A DNA stretch of 64,000 nucleotides from a virus (IMGVR_UViG_3300034104_001590:129-64128); one strand, 5' to 3'. Positions 37,870-48,704 are shown, counted from the stretch's first letter. Numbers and translations: made by a program. Notes: generated by a model not told the origin, from the letters alone.

Positions 37870-39933
37870 TTAATCCATAATTTTAAGGATCTTCCCTGTA
37901 TTCTTATCTACTCTAGCCAACTTCATTCTATAATTCGTTTCCTTCGATTGAACATATCGCATAACTACTTGCTTCTCTCCTTCATTACCTCTTATATTCT
38001 CTGGTTCATATCTAGCGTGAGCCTGTGCGTTGATATACGCAAAAGTTATAGCGAATATAGCATCATCATAGTCATATCTGGTATCTGCTGCCTGGTATCT
38101 TGTCTGCCTATGGCTAGTAGAACTCTTCAGATCTTTCTCTACAAAGGTTTTTAGCTGTTCCCATATCCAAGGAACATCAATATTATTTGCATAAGAGTCA
38201 ATCATCTCTTCCGCTTTAGCAATAATACGTGGAGCAGTGTTAGCTTTGTTAGAAATTCCAAACCATTTACCTCCATACGTCTGAAAATACTCTGGCAATT
38301 GGGTATTTGCAGTGAATTTCATCTTAAATCCATGTATCTCCTGGAAATCTACGTGCATATCACCGATATTATTCTCTACAAGCTCCTTAACCCCTCCTCT
38401 TCTCTGCTGATCGTAATATAAACTCTGTAATAACACCTGTAAATAGGTGTATTTAAACTTTTTATCCCTATGGAATACTACTGAAGATACAGAATTTGTA
38501 AGCGCATCCCATATTGCACTACACATCATAGAGTGTCCAGTCTCAGAGTTGATGGGATCGGTTCCTTGATACCACCTATTCTTCCAAACTTCGTTATCTG
38601 GTGGATGATGTATGACAACAGCCGTAGTAGAAATGTCTTCCCTTCCCGTTGTGGGAACCCATCTAGCTCCAATTATACGATATTCCGTTATTAAATCAGG
38701 AGTTGGTTGTGAATGATCCATTATAGGTTCAAAATATCCATACTCAATAGGAACATCTTTACTGTATATGTCGTTTAATCGTTGGTTACAGGTATGTATC
38801 GGCACAAGAGTTCTTGCTTTCCGTAGGAACATATCATCAATTGTGATTGGATAATGTTGGTGAAACTGCACTTTAGCAATTTCTCCTTTTTTGGTTCCCT
38901 CAAGTGCCAAATAGGCTTTACGCTCGTTGTTGATGTGCTCATCATTAACTCCTCTTCGTGCGTATGCGTTGAAAAATAACGGTATGATTCCATATTCATA
39001 GTTCTTTTCTTTCCATTGTGATAGACACATTTTAAATTCTGCCTCAAATACAGATCCTCCCTTATCCATTTCCCCTCCAGTTCCCCAAGCGATAAACTGC
39101 TGTTGCATCGTCATCTTCTTAGTTTCTGGGTTATACTTAAATAAAGCAGGTCTACCTTCCCTCATCATCTCGCCAAATATGTCAAATAGACCAATCTCAT
39201 CGATAAATACTGCTGATGGAGATCCACCATTGATAGCATCTACCTGTGGGCTATCTACCTGGAAGCGCGAAGCACCCCCATCATCTCTACCTTTTTTATC
39301 TCCTTTCTTATCAAAGGACATTACTTGATCTGTCCAGTTCTTTACTTCTTGAGCTAGGTAATCTGGAATCTTTGTATATGTCCACTTTACCTTATCTCTA
39401 AAGATTTCTATCCCCTTATCTTTTGAGTGAGTAACGAATTTAATGAAGTATGATTTGTTGAGGTTTACTCGCTTCATTCCTGCAAGACACATTGTCGTAG
39501 TAAAACCAATCTGTCGGGCCTTACCTATCATCATAGAATATCCGCAATCAAACAAATATAACAGAACTCTTTGAGCTTCCCAGGCTTGATACCTAAGCAT
39601 ACCGTGATCTGCCTTATCTTCCTTTATCCATCCGTATTTATTACAGAAGTAAAGTGTGTTATCGTTGCATCTGGTAATTTCACGAGATAGGAAATCATAC
39701 TGATCCTCTTCATTGTCGAAGTCAGTAATGAGTGTATCATCTTCTAGCCATTGTCTGGCTTGTTCGCAATAAAGCTCAAAGCTCCTGTATTTAATCTTGT
39801 TCTGCCAACCAGAGTTTATAGAGTCAATCCAATCTACAAATTCCTTTGGATAATCAAACTCAGCGTGATTAGGCTTCCATTGAGATGTCTTTACGAGCTT
39901 TGTAACTCTATCGTCTTTTTCTTTAAGACGCAT
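37870..39933 (-). CDS. terL: Terminase large subunit
   Basis: KARQIGFTT (Walker A variant), AVFIDEIG (Walker B), GTDP and DDAIFA nuclease motifs. Confidence 0.9.
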   Translation of the reverse strand: MRLKEKDDRVTKLVKTSQWKPNHAEFDYPKEFVDWIDSINSGWQNKIKYRSFELYCEQARQWLEDDTLITDFDNEEDQYDFLSREITRCNDNTLYFCNKYGWIKEDKADHGMLRYQAWEAQRVLLYLFDCGYSMMIGKARQIGFTTTMCLAGMKRVNLNKSYFIKFVTHSKDKGIEIFRDKVKWTYTKIPDYLAQEVKNWTDQVMSFDKKGDKKGRDDGGASRFQVDSPQVDAINGGSPSAVFIDEIGLFDIFGEMMREGRPALFKYNPETKKMTMQQQFIAWGTGGEMDKGGSVFEAEFKMCLSQWKEKNYEYGIIPLFFNAYARRGVNDEHINNERKAYLALEGTKKGEIAKVQFHQHYPITIDDMFLRKARTLVPIHTCNQRLNDIYSKDVPIEYGYFEPIMDHSQPTPDLITEYRIIGARWVPTTGREDISTTAVVIHHPPDNEVWKNRWYQGTDPINSETGHSMMCSAIWDALTNSVSSVVFHRDKKFKYTYLQVLLQSLYYDQQRRGGVKELVENNIGDMHVDFQEIHGFKMKFTANTQLPEYFQTYGGKWFGISNKANTAPRIIAKAEEMIDSYANNIDVPWIWEQLKTFVEKDLKSSTSHRQTRYQAADTRYDYDDAIFAITFAYINAQAHARYEPENIRGNEGEKQVVMRYVQSKETNYRMKLARVDKNTGKILKIMD

Positions 39934-41631: not shown

Positions 41632-41840
41632 TCTTCTGATTTTAAATTTATAAATCCTTCGAAGTCTAATAAAGGAAGGTTATTCCTATCACAATGGACA
41701 CAGAACTCAGCATACTCCTGGGCCTGTTTAATCTCCATTTTTTGAGCACTCTCAATATCATTCAATAGCAGAACTCCACATTGATTAATGTGTTTCTCGA
41801 CTAGCCAATCAATAGCTGTTTGATTATTTTTTTCTTTCAT
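41628..41840 (-). CDS. Hypothetical protein
   Basis: QTAIDWL...AQKME pattern common in Bacteroidota phages. Confidence 0.55.
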   Translation of the reverse strand: MKEKNNQTAIDWLVEKHINQCGVLLLNDIESAQKMEIKQAQEYAEFCVHCDRNNLPLLDFEGFINLKSEE

Positions 41841-42126
41841 CGATAATCTTCTCTACGTTTAACTTTATTTTTTTTAAATTAGAGAGATTCATCTTATGCC
41901 TGCTGTGCTCATAGAAGATCATACCATTCAACGCCCTGCTAAACTCTACCACATTCATACTCCCCTTCAACTTATTACAATCCCCGCAACATGGTACCTT
42001 ATTAGCATTACTCAATACCCCACCACGACTCTTAGGATACAAATGATCCACAGTCCTACTATAATCATCTAACTGCGTCTTACAATACGCACAGACAGAT
42101 AAATCAACCCCTCCCTTACTAATCAT
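41824..42126 (-). CDS. HNH endonuclease (Zn-binding)
   Basis: CAYC...TVDHLYPKSRGG...NKVPCCGDCNKLKG; promoter element at 42133-42140 favours the ATG at 42126. Confidence 0.85.
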   Translation of the reverse strand: MISKGGVDLSVCAYCKTQLDDYSRTVDHLYPKSRGGVLSNANKVPCCGDCNKLKGSMNVVEFSRALNGMIFYEHSRHKMNLSNLKKIKLNVEKIIDERKK

Positions 42127-42158
42127 ATCCAACAAAGATAATAAATAATCCTAATACT

Positions 42159-42351
42159 TTGTTACCACCTCTATGCGTAAACAACTTGTTACCACCTATA
42201 ACCAACTAAAATCCCTATCCCCATTGACTTCTAACAAAATCCTCTATATACTGTTTATCCCTAAAGATATAAGCAAGAAAATCAATGATTAGTTTATAAT
42301 ACTAAGTTATGTCGGTTATGTAATAAACGATATTACTTATTATGCGTAAAC
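42159..42351. repeat. Short direct repeats TTGTTACCACCT (42159, 42186) and TATGCGTAAAC (42172, 42341)
   Basis: Exact repeats in the long intergenic region. Confidence 0.7.
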
Positions 42352-42919
42352 GTAGCTCACCATCCCATAGTACTATTACCCCTCCCATATCCTAATTCCC
42401 CTACACCAGATATAAGTATTTCATCTATTATCCCTCCTGGTTTTTTAATTATCCACTGGTCGTATCAAAAATAAATCTGTATTCTTCAAGGACTTATACG
42501 TAGTAACCTATCCCCTCCCTATTCTCAAAGGAAAGTCAATCTCAACAATCACTTGCATTGACTTAACTTAACTATCTTTGTTTCAGTTAGTTACATTCAC
42601 TTTGTTAGTGCTTGGATCCCCTTTATTTTTGCTCTTATTTATTGCTAACTTATTAATTTTCAGTGCGTTATATATTCTTGATGATATGCTGAGAATAATA
42701 ATTGCACACTTTTATTCATTAATTATGAACATACCCACCTAAAATATGGTTTAATCTTGCATAAAAATATGGTAACAATACGTCATTTAATATCTACTAT
42801 TTCACTGCAAAAGTCACGTTTTTTGTGCTGAAATCAATAATTTTTAGTGTTATTTAAATCATTGATTATCAGTTAGTTAGCTAATTTATATCTAATTATT
42901 TTTAATTATTTTTAAATTT

Positions 42920-42953
42920 TTTGTTATCAATTCAAAATTTATATATATGTTTG
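42920..42953 (+). promoter_or_regulatory. Putative main early promoter (TTTG...TATGTTTG)
   Basis: -33 TTTG at 42920-42923 and -7 element at 42946-42953 with AT-rich upstream DNA. Confidence 0.65.
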
Positions 42954-42955
42954 TA

Positions 42956-43420
42956 TCGTCATCATTGGTTAACGAACTACTAAAATGAATGACACACACG
43001 AAAAGACTAGTTAACATATATTCTTGTTAATCTCGAAGTTTACTAGTTGTTTAGGTTAATCCTAATTAGTTCCTATCTTATAGGCGTGTGAAGTTCTTTG
43101 TTTATTGATAAGATAGCGTGTAAAAAATTAAATTTTAACGGGTAGACGCTGCACCTAGTCCATGCAAGTTAACACTAGTAGAACGTTGTGAAACGTGGCT
43201 ATAAACTAACATAGGGATATGTTATGGTCTATTGCTTTGAAAGAAAGTATGCATCTAATCGCGTATATGTATGGGGGTAAACTATGTTTACTCAGAACGC
43301 TATTAATATAAATTAATAAACGAAGATAGGTTAACACCTTGAAATAGAATAGAAAAAAAATTCGCCTTGTTTACTATGAGTAATTAACTTCGAGCGAAAC
43401 GAAGCGAGGCACTAACCAAT
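42956..43420 (+). ncRNA. Candidate long structured leader/ncRNA with boxA-like site and tRNA-like 3' element
   Basis: No ORF of 60 aa or more; more than ten hand-paired stems; GTTCTTTG at 43093-43100. Confidence 0.55.
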
Positions 43421-43434
43421 TAATAAACACAAAA

Positions 43435-43815
43435 ATGAAAAACAAAACAATGGGTGCATCTACACAAGTAAAGAAAGTTGTTAGAGTAACGGCAACAAAG
43501 AAAGCTATTCAAGTGACTAGCAAAAAAGAAAAAGTAACCTACTTATCTGAAGGGGTAACGGGCAAACAAATGATGACTGCTATTTATGACGCAAATAATC
43601 GCCATAAAAAAGACTTAGGGTCATTGAGTCAATGTTTGAAGAGAGCTATTGAATTCGGCAAAGATGATTTTACCAAAACAATAAAAGGTTTTAATGTAAA
43701 AGACTGCACCCCGAAAAACTTAGTGCCGTTGCGAAGTGCAAAGAATGCTTCTAAAGAAACGTTTAGCGTTTACGAAGTGTTAATGTTAATCAAGAAATAC
43801 TACCAAACAAAATAA
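43435..43815 (+). CDS. First early gene, basic hypothetical protein
   Basis: 126 aa, A-rich leader, followed by a terminator. Confidence 0.7.
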   Translation: MKNKTMGASTQVKKVVRVTATKKAIQVTSKKEKVTYLSEGVTGKQMMTAIYDANNRHKKDLGSLSQCLKRAIEFGKDDFTKTIKGFNVKDCTPKNLVPLRSAKNASKETFSVYEVLMLIKKYYQTK

Positions 43816-43835
43816 TTAATTACTAACTTTTATCA

Positions 43836-43864
43836 AGCCTGTAGGGATTCCTATGGGCTTTTTT
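43836..43864 (+). terminator. Intrinsic terminator
   Basis: AAGCCTGTAGG/CCTATGGGCTT stem plus T-run. Confidence 0.7.
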
Positions 43865-43885
43865 GTTTTACCTAAATTAATAAAA

Positions 43886-44131
43886 ATGAAAGCAAAATTT
43901 CACAAAAACTTTAGCTTGTCTGGATTTCAAGCTAACAAAACTTATATCATTAAACAATCGGGCAAAATAGAATTTAACAAGTTCGTGCCTTTGAGTTTAC
44001 TAACTAAACTATTCGATGACATCGAACAAATATTATATTCAAACGATACGATAACTATCGAGGGGGAAAATGACGAGCTATTCGTGGGTTCATACGTGAA
44101 TATAGGAACGACAAAAAAACTAGGAGCGTAA
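43886..44131 (+). CDS. Hypothetical early protein (start revised to 43886)
   Basis: The upstream ATG lies inside the terminator; TAAAAATG context at 43886. Confidence 0.55.
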   Translation: MKAKFHKNFSLSGFQANKTYIIKQSGKIEFNKFVPLSLLTKLFDDIEQILYSNDTITIEGENDELFVGSYVNIGTTKKLGA

Positions 44132-44298
44132 TGGATAGGAGCGTATTTTGTGTAGTGGTTAACGCGAGAGGAACGGAACACGTATGCGAAGTGTATGCGT
44201 GTTCTATCTTCCACGCAATCGAAATACTATACAATGAGAAAAATTACAGGGATATTCAGCCCGATCGAACAAAGTATAAACAATTTAAAAGAAAATAA
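44131..44298 (+). CDS. Hypothetical early protein (55 aa)
   Basis: TAATG coupling; MDRSVFCVVVNARG... Confidence 0.5.
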   Translation: MDRSVFCVVVNARGTEHVCEVYACSIFHAIEILYNEKNYRDIQPDRTKYKQFKRK

Positions 44299-44712: not shown

Positions 44713-44895
44713 ATGGATATAGTTCACGTCAAAGTTACATTTGAAGATACATTCTCAGGTGCAACAACTACTAAGGTAGTAACACGAAGCAAAGAAACAT
44801 TTGAAAAGATGAAGAAAGGAATCGGATCCATAGTATCTGTATTCGAAAACAATATTCATTGGGATTGGAAAGTAATTAAAGTTGAACAAGCATAA
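44713..44895 (+). CDS. Hypothetical early protein
   Basis: Intact ORF, A-rich leader. Confidence 0.55.
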   Translation: MDIVHVKVTFEDTFSGATTTKVVTRSKETFEKMKKGIGSIVSVFENNIHWDWKVIKVEQA

Positions 44896-45639: not shown

Positions 45640-45669
45640 GCCCGTAGCTATTGGAGTTACGGGTTTTTT
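45640..45669 (+). terminator. Intrinsic terminator upstream of the amidoligase gene
   Basis: GCCCGTAGCT/AGTTACGGGT stem plus T-run. Confidence 0.6.
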
Positions 45670-45698
45670 ATTAACCAATATACTAAAATAAACTAATT

Positions 45699-47245: not shown

Positions 47246-48121
47246 ATGTGTATAGCAATTCTTAATACAAAACAAACTACTCTTAAAAAACAATTACTTA
47301 AAAATTGTTGGGAGAACAATGGCGATGGTGCAGGTATGTTGTATATCGACAACGACAATCAACTTAAAGTATTCAAAGAAATGAAGAGCTTTAATACGTT
47401 CTATAACAACTACATAGACATCAAGCAAAAGTATGGTAAGCGTAACATTGTATTGCACTTCCGTATCTCTACTCACGGCAAGATTAACAAAACAAATTGT
47501 CACCCATTCCTTGTTGATGACAACTTAGGATTCGTTCATAATGGTATGATATACAATGCACCTACGAGCACTGAGTATTCAGATACATATATGTTCAATG
47601 AAACAATACTCAAGAAGTTCAAGCCTGGATTCGAATACGATGATGACATACTAGACTTATTAGCTGAGTATATCGGCAATGGTAGTAAGTTAGTATTCCT
47701 CAATTCAAATGATGAGTGGGCTATTGTTAATGAGGCAGCAGGACATTGGAATATGGGCTGTTGGTTTTCTAACTCTTCATACAAGCAAGTCAATGATTGG
47801 TATGACTTCGGAGGTATCAAGAAGCAAAAGTCTACTGCTAAGAAAACTACTCCTACATTCGATAGAACATTCCATTGGACAAGTAATGAGAACTATATCA
47901 GTGCTCACCAATCACAATACTGCACAGGCTGCGATATGATGCTTAGTGGCTTGAAAGAAATAGAAGATGGTATGTGTGCTTGGTGCAAGGAAGAAGAATC
48001 AATTAGAGAGCTAGAAGATATGACATTGGATTGTGAACTATGTGATGGCACTAATGGTAAATACAATCACTATTACAATGCTTTCACTTGCGAGGAATGC
48101 GATAAGTATCTAGGAGCATAA
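47246..48121 (+). CDS. Class II (Ntn) glutamine amidotransferase with C-terminal Zn-ribbon
   Basis: N-terminal MC, NGDGAG, HFRISTHG, HPF, HNG and SDT motifs; four CxxC pairs at the C-terminus. Confidence 0.88.
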   Translation: MCIAILNTKQTTLKKQLLKNCWENNGDGAGMLYIDNDNQLKVFKEMKSFNTFYNNYIDIKQKYGKRNIVLHFRISTHGKINKTNCHPFLVDDNLGFVHNGMIYNAPTSTEYSDTYMFNETILKKFKPGFEYDDDILDLLAEYIGNGSKLVFLNSNDEWAIVNEAAGHWNMGCWFSNSSYKQVNDWYDFGGIKKQKSTAKKTTPTFDRTFHWTSNENYISAHQSQYCTGCDMMLSGLKEIEDGMCAWCKEEESIRELEDMTLDCELCDGTNGKYNHYYNAFTCEECDKYLGA

Positions 48122-48149: not shown

Positions 48150-48704
48150 ATGGCAAACAACTGTTGGAATTACGCAGTCTTATCGGGTGATAAGGCTGCA
48201 TTAGATGAGATTCAAGAACGATTCTCTAAGTATGATGACACAAATTACTTCACTGAGTTTGGAGATATTGTGCTTAAAAAAGAAATGAAAGAAGACTATT
48301 CATCATTAAGCTTCGATGAATACTACCAATACGGAACAAAGTGGTGGGATTTCAACATAGATGAAAGAACAGACAATACGTTAATCATATCAGGAGATAG
48401 TGCTTGGAGTCCACCTCTAGAATTACTACGTCAAATATCAGAAGTGTATAACGTAACAATAGAGGGCGAATACAATGAATGTGGAATGGGCTTCGGAGGA
48501 TTCTTTGTGTGTGAAGATGGTATCTTATCAGATAATGAAATGACTTACTTTGAATATCAATTAGAATCAGATAGAGAATGGGCTATCGATGAAGTTATCA
48601 ATAACTTACAAGATTGGGATGAAGAGTTTGATGAAGATGCTTACCCTCAGCTTACTCAACAAGAGAAAGAATATATTAAAGAACAATTAAAGAAAGAAGT
48701 ATGA
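48150..48704 (+). CDS. DUF1281/YubB ferredoxin-like fold protein
   Basis: MANNCWN start, YGTKW, SAWSPP and YNECGMGFGG motifs. Confidence 0.75.
   Translation: MANNCWNYAVLSGDKAALDEIQERFSKYDDTNYFTEFGDIVLKKEMKEDYSSLSFDEYYQYGTKWWDFNIDERTDNTLIISGDSAWSPPLELLRQISEVYNVTIEGEYNECGMGFGGFFVCEDGILSDNEMTYFEYQLESDREWAIDEVINNLQDWDEEFDEDAYPQLTQQEKEYIKEQLKKEV

Follow-up and report, generated by a model that had tools for sequence, protein, structure and literature searches.

BoxA-dependent antitermination and phage hammerhead ribozymes are both known kinds of element. Ribosomal RNA (rrn) operons carry boxA in the leader and again in the spacer, which is a known hallmark of rrn boxA, and the E. coli rrn complex counters mainly Rho and, to a lesser degree, hairpin terminators. 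In phage lambda, the pL-nutL-N-tL1 region consists of a promoter, a leader with boxA and hairpins, a small basic ORF and a terminator. HK022 put and Bacillus EAR are structured RNAs that promote processive antitermination; put consists of two hairpins just past the promoter and works on RNA polymerase with no protein involved. To our knowledge, antitermination in phages of Bacteroidota is almost unexplored. Earlier ribozyme classes have been found via elements that occupy the niche of a self-cleaving ribozyme.

Passages of published work describe the recognition of an 8-nt boxA by NusB-NusE (PMC3177189) and an rrn complex that withstands Rho and helps rRNA to fold (PMC6614801). Parts of a review also cover Rho resistance, the aid to rRNA folding and the NusB-NusE/boxA interaction, and add that boxA can promote termination in some contexts (PMC12360218). 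In work on hammerheads, Perreault et al. 2011 (PMC3088659) describe tandem copies on either side of genes of prophage transcripts, and they place the 5' end of a halovirus early transcript at a hammerhead site.

Here we analysed a 64,000-nt stretch of viral DNA (the window), in which a preliminary description had pointed to a structured leader with a boxA-like site at positions 42956-43420. On balance, we favour the reading that this early leader resembles that of an rRNA operon, depends on Nus and boxA and carries a new structured RNA. The phage would then probably borrow host rrn-type machinery to express its early genes.

Setting and layout of the early leader

The window is nearly the whole of a 64,128-nt IMG/VR virus record, estimated to be 94% complete. 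Minus-strand genes reach up to 42135, and those on the plus strand occupy 43435 to about 60 kb. The two gene blocks are separated by 1.3 kb without a substantial ORF, and the cumulative GC-skew minimum falls in this ORF-poor gap. The minus-strand block includes an HNH endonuclease (41824-42135) and a weak match to the terminase large subunit (TerL) at 37870-39933. Blastn against cultured phages gave no DNA match to the window, and its TerL is at most 24% identical to theirs. No tRNA or tmRNA was detected by ARAGORN. The sequencing runs that contain the window's DNA are mostly lake-water metagenomes; one RNA run is among them, with 0.07 of the words. The host phylum of this lake phage is probably Bacteroidota, because the genome uses TAnnTTTG boxes and has no purine-rich ribosome-binding sites before its start codons.

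Positions 42956-43420 are ORF-free and lie between a TAnnTTTG box and the first early ORF. We infer that in this uncultured lake phage the early operon is transcribed with an untranslated leader that spans 42956-43434. This leader is built of a 5' hairpin, a variable domain, boxA, a core of about 190 nt, a linker and a pre-ORF hairpin. The features of the leader and of the first genes are as follows.

42946..42953, plus strand: TAnnTTTG-type promoter box TATGTTTG; predicted transcript start at about 42958-42962
42958..42993, plus strand: three-tier 5' hairpin (GTCAT/ATGAC, CATT/AATG, GTT/AAC); the apical loop is AACG, and the 3' strand has a 6-nt bulge
42995..43090, plus strand: variable branched domain with closing helix CACACG/CGTGTG
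43093-43100, plus strand: boxA core GTTCTTTG, directly after the closing helix of the branched domain
43105-43111, plus strand: TTGATAA, invariant in 6/6 members of the core family
43292..43363, plus strand: conserved linker with TCAGAACGCTATTAA, AATAAACG and TTGAAATAGAATAG
43328-43339, plus strand: small hairpin AGGT/ACCT in the linker
43364-43410, plus strand: pre-ORF hairpin with P1 GCCTTG/CGAGGC, an 18-nt internal loop, P2 CTTCG/CGAAG and loop AGCGAAA
43411-43420, plus strand: tail ACTAACCAAT of the pre-ORF hairpin, with the start codon 15 nt further
43435..43815, plus strand: first early ORF (126 aa); N-terminal tail basic and disordered, C-terminal domain conserved and made of four helices
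43835-43860, plus strand: T1, an intrinsic-terminator-like hairpin of 11 pairs, then a T run
45640-45664, plus strand: T2, an intrinsic-terminator-like hairpin, then TTAACCAAT and a 506-aa ORF

The promoter box is kept in the related loci L002, L003, L105, L022 and L015. Similarity to L015, whose TerL is 100% identical to that of the window, stops at 42959 and resumes at 44150; leader and first genes therefore form an exchangeable cassette, which would start at the predicted transcript start.

Every hairpin named in the preliminary description was found in the sequence at its given position. Its GTCAT/ATGAC pairing (42958-62 / 42989-93) turned out to be the base of a conserved three-tier hairpin that covaries in five sequences: in a MAFFT alignment, 91.5% of the cells were paired, a value reached by 0/500 shuffles, and seven of the 12 pairs had changed on both sides. 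The CACACG/CGTGTG closure is present and kept in the window, L105 and L002, and is unchanged there, so it shows no covariation. The helices TTAACA/TGTTAA, TTAGG/CCTAA and CCTAT/ATAGG sit in a stretch that diverges strongly even in the closest relative, L105; the interior of the branched domain is not conserved.

Beyond the leader, the terminators proposed at 43836 and 45640 correspond to T1 and T2, and the remark that no TAnnTTTG follows right after them also held, since beyond 42946 the plus strand has such boxes at 44736 and 50369 only. Because two hairpins lie in line and boxes occur only at these two positions, the genes beyond T1 and T2 appear to depend on read-through. Hairpins equivalent to T1 follow the first ORF in L023, L031 and L039. 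L105 and L022 share the leader and have no terminator after the ORF, which opposes a strict coupling of leader and terminator. The N-terminus of the first ORF is disordered and rich in Lys and Thr (mean pLDDT of the structure model 65), and its product had no match in PHROG, Pfam, Atlas or PDB folds.

A conserved core RNA on the plus strand

Relatives were collected by several routes. Two related contigs were recovered via the protein of the first ORF, a terminase search yielded 167 relatives, of which 80 loci were kept, and further relatives came from DNA pattern scans and one metagenome scan. The first pattern scan returned 11 stretches with three real relatives and the second 14 with five; both stretches from the metagenome pattern scan were real and one of them was new (L105), while the last pattern scan gave 15 stretches with two real relatives. 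A further pattern scan returned at least 118 stretches, and among the matches listed only L009 was real; about 45 of the contexts were inspected and were coding. Neither of the two stretches from a bacterial-genome pattern scan was a real relative.

The resulting core family consists of six distinct sequences: the window, L105, L002, L022, L003 and L023. L002 and L009 are the same contig, as are L003 and L011, and L023, L094 and L104; L007, on the L045 contig, is nearly identical to L003 and was left out of the count of six. The family is thus small, and all its members come from similar samples. Nothing like the core turned up in the 185,579 species-representative genomes of the bacterial scan, whose two matches were due to chance, and it was absent from 249 further phage loci (130 from pattern scans and 119 with hammerheads).

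The core, numbered from the invariant TTGATAA at 43105 to 43291, comprises these elements.

43115-19 / 43146-50, plus strand: helix H2, AGCGT/ACGCT, with 3/5 pairs changed on both sides
43140-43 / 43153-56, plus strand: pseudoknot of GGGT in the H2 loop with ACCT, the next four bases past H2 in the pairing scheme
43160..43274, plus strand: junction closed by H3 and containing hairpins H4, H5 and H6
43160-66 / 43268-74, plus strand: helix H3, CCATGCA/TGTATGG, long-range and invariant
43179-43201, plus strand: two-part hairpin H4, loop GTGA, covarying
43207-43224, plus strand: hairpin H5, loop GGGA, covarying
43247-43266, plus strand: hairpin H6, covarying
43277..43291, plus strand: hairpin H7, GTAAAC/GTTTAC, with 5/6 pairs changed on both sides

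A covariance model (R1) was built from the structure written on the window and L105. Run on 37 loci, it recovered exactly the six members, with scores of 253.8 bits for the window, 250.8 for L105, 160.9 for L002, 125.9 for L022, 69 for L023 and 53.1 for L003; the next best match had 11.3 bits. The features by which the core is recognised, namely TTGATAA, H2 with the pseudoknot, the H3-closed junction, the two GNRA hairpins and the third hairpin, were all found. In the alignment of the six sequences fitted to the model, the core of about 190 nt has 39 pairs in seven helices and one pseudoknot; 97.7% of the cells are paired and 22/39 pairs have changed on both sides. Neither the pairing nor the covariation value was reached in any of 500 shuffles, and sliding the partners lowered pairing to 17-53%. 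A sequence-only MAFFT alignment folded with RNAalifold had compensatory changes at 13 of its 37 pairs, and this is the more conservative figure because fitting to a covariance model favours structure.

Four sequences have GGGT/ACCT at the pseudoknot, L003 has GGGC/GCCT and L023 has GAGC/GCTT, so that two positions are compensated. H7 is missing from the short form in L003. The loops of H4 and H5 are GNRA in 12/12 cases and all six sequences share two unchanging G-U pairs, and for these two reasons we place the core RNA on the plus strand. The covariation among relatives that the preliminary description had proposed as a check is therefore present on that strand, and together with the GNRA loops and the invariant G-U pairs it upholds the idea of a structured RNA. 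Single-sequence folding of the leader is within chance (-104 kcal/mol, z -1.79, with 6/100 shuffles equally good on the plus strand, and a similar z of -2.04 on the minus strand).

The domain boundaries drawn earlier were partly wrong. The pairings CGTT/AACG, TAACATA/TATGTTA and GTAAAC/GTTTAC are real and equal helices H4, H5 and H7, whereas the proposed closing helix ATAGCGT/ACGCTAT is not a conserved pairing: AGCGT pairs with the nearer ACGCT to form H2. This near partner is evident from TTGACG/CGTCAA, ATGACG/CGTCAT and AGCGC/GCGCT in relatives. In L105 the last base of AGCGT is altered and the compensation is found in the near partner, and relatives with TTGACG/CGTCAA at H2 retain the distal ACGCTAT without a partner. 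Both ATAGCGT/ACGCTAT and a GTTCT/AGAAC pairing were dropped, as they were unsupported in L002, L022, L023 and L003. Two candidate pairings, TTGATAA/TTATTAA and GTTTATTGA/TTAATAAAC, have both strands invariant.

boxA, hammerheads and the pre-ORF hairpin

The boxA-like site noted earlier at 43093 is in place. The window holds six exact copies of GTTCTTTG, so that the motif alone is not significant there and takes its meaning from conservation. It occurs exactly, about 135 nt past the predicted start, in 6/10 distinct related leaders (the window, L105, L003, L007, L023 and L039), and L002 matches 7/8 bases. It is missing in three of the ten (L022, L031/L033 and L015), and L022 lacks boxA yet has the core structured RNA. 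In L039, boxA is kept in place though the next ~330 nt are unrelated to the window's core. Other phages carry boxA followed by different RNAs, some of them with a hairpin resembling the tRNA T-arm.

The idea of a boxA was strengthened by comparison with rrn operons, since rrn leaders and spacers of Bacteroidota conserve this very 8-mer, which is also kept in most of the related phage leaders. We sampled 41 Bacteroidota genomes, which gave 20 16S loci. Their 16S leaders contained 13 copies of GTTCTTTG in 7,201 nt, in 13/20 loci (14 with a relaxed pattern), against 23 copies in 161,093 nt on both strands elsewhere in the rrn loci. Most of the latter were spacer copies: the motif was found in the 16S-23S spacer of 18/20 loci, never inside 16S, and three times on antisense strands. 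The phage motif thus equals the rrn boxA of Bacteroidota, the phylum of the probable host, and it occupies a conserved position on the sense strand of a promoter-proximal leader whose transcript start is predicted.

Copies in rrn spacers mostly read GTTCTTTGACATATTGG, and the identical 17-mer occurs in the phage leaders L374 and L338; the boxA region of L003 is GTTCTTTGACATGTTGATAA. Past the 8-mer, the window continues with GTTTAT, unlike the rrn consensus (GACAT or GAAAA). Because L374 and L338 share the spacer 17-mer and L003 is similar, boxA plus TTGATAA looks like the extended boxA region of rrn spacers, with TTGATAA as its putative tail. Upstream of the first hammerhead in 119 hammerhead loci, boxA occurred in 3/119, which is the background rate and no enrichment. 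Neither spacing nor conservation suited an internal promoter at boxA, and this reading was rejected.

Type I hammerheads before the first ORF of relatives had been absent from the preliminary description, as had the separate conserved hairpin at this place in the window. When whole leaders were aligned, L003 and L023 proved to have canonical type I hammerheads immediately ahead of their first ORF, in the order stem I GGTTAA/TTAACC, CUGAUGA, stem II, GAAA, stem III and GUA or GUC. With a strict descriptor, complete hammerheads were recovered from L003, L007, L015, L023, L030, L037 and L046; they precede the first ORF in L003, L007, L015 and L023, and L003 has two, one on each side of that ORF. 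By inspection, L031 and L039 carry a hammerhead-like element with one deviation each in core or stem. Stems II and III covary among the relatives' hammerheads, and Rfam scores these weakly (Hammerhead_3 17.4 bits, RAGATH-1-hammerhead 25.4 bits).

A scan of the collection for stem I plus core returned at least 120 stretches, and 119 new loci were analysed. Complete hammerheads were present in 106 of these, 147 in total and up to six per locus. TTAACC forms the 3' strand of stem I in 130/147, and an ORF of at least 40 aa starts 10-69 nt after the cleavage site in 126/147.

Where the relatives have a hammerhead, the window has the pre-ORF hairpin, followed by nearly the same tail. The hairpin ends 25 nt before the start codon and has nine members (the window, L105, L002, L022, L290, L301, L321, L338 and L374). 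In a sequence-only alignment of these, all 95 cells were paired and 8/11 pairs had changed on both sides; none of 500 shuffles was equally good. The loop AGCGA(A/T)A is invariant in 9/9 members. A model of the hairpin (R2), run over 1.9 Mb, found a single copy at each locus and no other matches. The first ORFs that follow are unrelated among members (e.g. L374 and L321) and true hammerheads lie further downstream in five of the nine phages; the hairpin is therefore tied to the junction of leader and first ORF and not to a gene.

We also considered whether the window's hairpin is itself a hammerhead and rejected this, because CUGAnGA, stem III and a GUH site are missing, features required in all hammerhead permutations (PMC10085705). 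At 43374-43380 the window has CTATGAG in place of CUGAnGA; no CTGAnGA occurs near 43300-43440, and the strict descriptor found no hammerhead in the window. Its GAAA lies in the AGCGAAA loop, closed by the covarying CTTCG/CGAAG.

Proposed mechanism, alternatives and known systems

In the mechanism we propose, nascent boxA would recruit host NusB-S10 and other Nus factors to RNA polymerase in the style of an rRNA operon. The modified polymerase would be protected from Rho across about 475 nt of untranslated RNA, would help the structured domain to fold, and would continue through the terminators at 43835, after the first ORF, and 45640. Since Rho is the main target of the rrn complex, T1 and T2 may need another factor. 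Also counting against this reading are the lack of boxA in L022 in spite of its core, the background rate of boxA upstream of hammerheads at large and the six copies of the 8-mer in the window. Among relatives, cleavage by a type I hammerhead some 20 nt ahead of the start codon would cut the structured RNA off the mRNA; here the pre-ORF hairpin takes the hammerhead's place and might separate RNA from mRNA, although the window has no hammerhead, which counts against RNA release here. Judging from the loci compared, the core is more in keeping with a cargo RNA than with a signal for antitermination, because it is exchanged among relatives that keep boxA and other phages carry different RNAs after boxA. 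A bolder version, which we regard as unlikely, is that the leader mimics an rRNA operon throughout: boxA would load an antitermination and chaperone complex to make, fold and release a cargo RNA acting on the host, and the pre-ORF hairpin would be a new self-cleaving or self-processing class.

The same cargo-like behaviour could also mean that the structured RNA is the product itself. BoxA would then merely shield the leader from Rho and aid folding, with no role in read-through; T1 and T2 would be true ends or attenuators, other promoters would serve the genes beyond, and the RNA would act in trans, for instance as a decoy or in takeover. The hammerhead between RNA and first ORF in relatives, the swapping of the RNA after boxA like accessory cargo (L039, L031, L374, L338, L267 and L287) and the retention of the leader without T1 in L105 and L022 all speak for this. 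Yet the window lacks a ribozyme of its own that could release the RNA, and the promoter scan covered one motif, TAnnTTTG; we hold this reading to be somewhat unlikely. A quite unlikely explanation is antitermination by RNA only, or by RNA with an N-like phage protein (put, EAR or boxB-N style), for which the first ORF would be the candidate partner. The layout of the leader does resemble lambda pL-nutL-N-tL1, the N-terminus of the first ORF is disordered and Lys/Thr-rich, and the hairpin loop is invariant in all nine members. However, unrelated sequence replaces the core in L039 and L031, which keep the same ORF (and, in L039, boxA as well), the pre-ORF hairpin precedes unrelated first ORFs (L374 and L321), no Rfam family matches, EAR included, and the first ORF has neither a family nor a fold match.

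A complex conserved fold in a 5' leader, ending in a conserved hairpin 25 nt before a start codon, would also suit a cis-acting sensor, such as a riboswitch or translational operator, that controls the first ORF. We think this very unlikely: in relatives, a self-cleaving ribozyme lies between domain and ORF, 43300-43435 contains no terminator and no helix sequestering the start codon that covaries with the domain, and no riboswitch family in Rfam matches. It is extremely improbable that the region is a DNA-level element (a replication origin or operators) or a set of chance hairpins with no functional RNA. The divergence of the transcription blocks at a cumulative GC-skew minimum, the weak single-sequence z, similar on both strands, and repeats just upstream would fit such an element. 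Against these stand the compensatory changes in 22/39 core pairs, the invariant G-U pairs, which would be A-C on the opposite strand, and the GNRA loops in 12/12 cases; the repeats, moreover, lie upstream of the promoter and outside the leader.

If the favoured reading of a Nus/boxA-dependent leader holds, a host-type boxA in an early leader makes the hijacking of Nus factors directly testable beyond lambdoid phages. The combination of boxA and hammerhead in this phage lineage, the core RNA family and the pre-ORF hairpin family appear to be new. The latter two are RNA families with strong covariation, a pseudoknotted domain of about 190 nt and a 47-nt hairpin in a ribozyme niche. The layout of boxA, exchangeable RNA, ribozyme or hairpin and ORF recurs in several lake phages and suggests a common way of delivering early RNA.

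Rfam 15 produced no match at the gathering score in the whole 64 kb; at E<=10, 42950-43440 gave only a minus-strand snoRNA model at 19.1 bits versus a gathering score of 65, which is noise, and the relatives, scanned likewise, yielded no relevant family. A large survey of viruses and phages lists over ten thousand candidates for structured RNAs (PMC10690425); neither of our RNA families was described in the literature we consulted on phage hammerheads, boxA and structured RNAs, a comparison that leaves aside the supplementary motif lists of that survey. The preliminary description had raised ROOL and GOLLD as possibilities. Like these, the leader is phage-borne and holds a conserved multi-helix RNA, but it is much smaller (core about 190 nt, whole leader about 475 nt), and both are excluded because Rfam gave no match to either in the window or the leader. 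The unpaired 5' flank of DUF2693 RNA (RF02956) resembles boxA plus UUGAUAA of L003 (13.7 bits, E 2.6), but just 36/165 model positions align in L003 and the window gives no match; RF02956 was found in 0/151 sampled Bacteroidota genomes and 0/14 controls. DUF2693-FD, a motif treated in the literature, is a different one.

With put and EAR the locus shares a cis-acting structured RNA in a terminator-containing operon. EAR differs in giving no Rfam match to the leader, and put in being two hairpins where the 5' hairpin at 42958-42993 is single and three-tiered; moreover, the phage leader has a protein-dependent boxA and a structured domain that is exchangeable among relatives. The RNA-only, put-like mechanism put forward earlier is not supported. 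The relatives' elements, with CUGAnGA, GAAA and GUC/GUA before early ORFs, resemble the type I hammerheads of phages and prophages as far as these are described in PMC3088659, whereas CUGAnGA and a stem III with a cleavage site are both missing from the element in the window. The closest likeness in motif is to boxA of rrn leaders and spacers and of lambda nut: the phage has the 8-nt motif of Bacteroidota rrn, which here is promoter-proximal and on the sense strand, directly after a helix-closed domain, and precedes a long untranslated structured RNA and in-line terminators. The bases after the window's 8-mer depart from the rrn consensus, and the phage motif differs from its rrn counterpart in apparently serving an early operon, where a non-ribosomal structured RNA and protein genes follow.

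Leader exchange and early genes

A contig of a related phage (L015), whose terminase is 100% identical, agrees with the window as far as 42959, and the match resumes at 44150. Between these matching stretches (window 42959-44150), L015 carries a short ORF together with a hammerhead, and its first gene differs from that of the window. As judged from this sequence comparison, the leader and first genes are an exchangeable cassette.

In the protein encoded by the first early ORF (43435-43815, +), the N-terminus is disordered, rich in Lys and Thr and variable between relatives, and the C-terminal domain is conserved and predicted to fold into four helices (pLDDT about 80-86). Comparison of this ORF with Pfam, PHROG, Atlas and PDB folds gave no match. 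Family matches were obtained for two other early genes:

47246-48121, class-II glutamine amidotransferase-like N-terminal domain
48150-48704, DUF1281_C (Api92-like ferredoxin-like) domain

The region 5' of the early promoter (42100-42945) contains three repeats and a second promoter-type box:

42107, 42378 and 42511, repeat ACCCCTCCC, three copies
42159 and 42186, repeat TTGTTACCACCT, two copies
42583 and 42869, repeat TCAGTTAGTTA, two copies
42573, +, second TAnnTTTG box

Several motifs of this region are kept in relatives, and the upstream motifs may be operators, an origin or additional promoters.

Tail motifs and the hammerhead family

The window retains the hammerhead-type tail motif at two sites without any ribozyme:

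43411-43420, tail motif ACTAACCAAT, 5' of the first early ORF
45671-45679, tail motif TTAACCAAT, 3' of T2, the terminator-like hairpin at 45640-45664

Type I hammerheads with an almost invariant stem I, GGTTAA/TTAACC, form a very large family in IMG/VR (L258-L376). Among the matches listed, 147 complete type I hammerheads were counted at 119 loci, and an ORF starts 10-69 nt 3' of the cut in 126 of these copies. UUAACC would be the expected 5' start of the hammerhead-processed mRNAs. At four related phage loci (L030, L037, L046 and L003 4363-4425), stem III of the hammerhead includes a hairpin rich in G+C, with a T run 3' of it. By its sequence this arrangement looks like a terminator, and such a stem III could mean that the ribozyme is completed only when polymerase reads through.

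BoxA and leader hairpins in known and related systems

At the sampled Bacteroidota rRNA loci (L108-L127), boxA is of the GTTCTTTGA(A/T)(A/G)A type in the operon leader and of the GTTCTTTGACAT(A/G)TTGG type in the 16S-23S spacer. In the related phage segment L003 3671-3716, boxA plus UUGAUAA is similar (13.7 bits) to the 5' flank that the Rfam DUF2693 model leaves unpaired, and the Bacteroidota DUF2693 motif may, too, begin with a boxA.

In the boxA-led leaders of four other phage loci (L374, L338, L290 and L287) there is a hairpin whose stem is 5-6 bp long and whose 7-nt loop reads TTCGATT. ARAGORN called no tRNA or tmRNA in these leaders and they matched no Rfam family; the hairpin itself is like the T arm of a tRNA.
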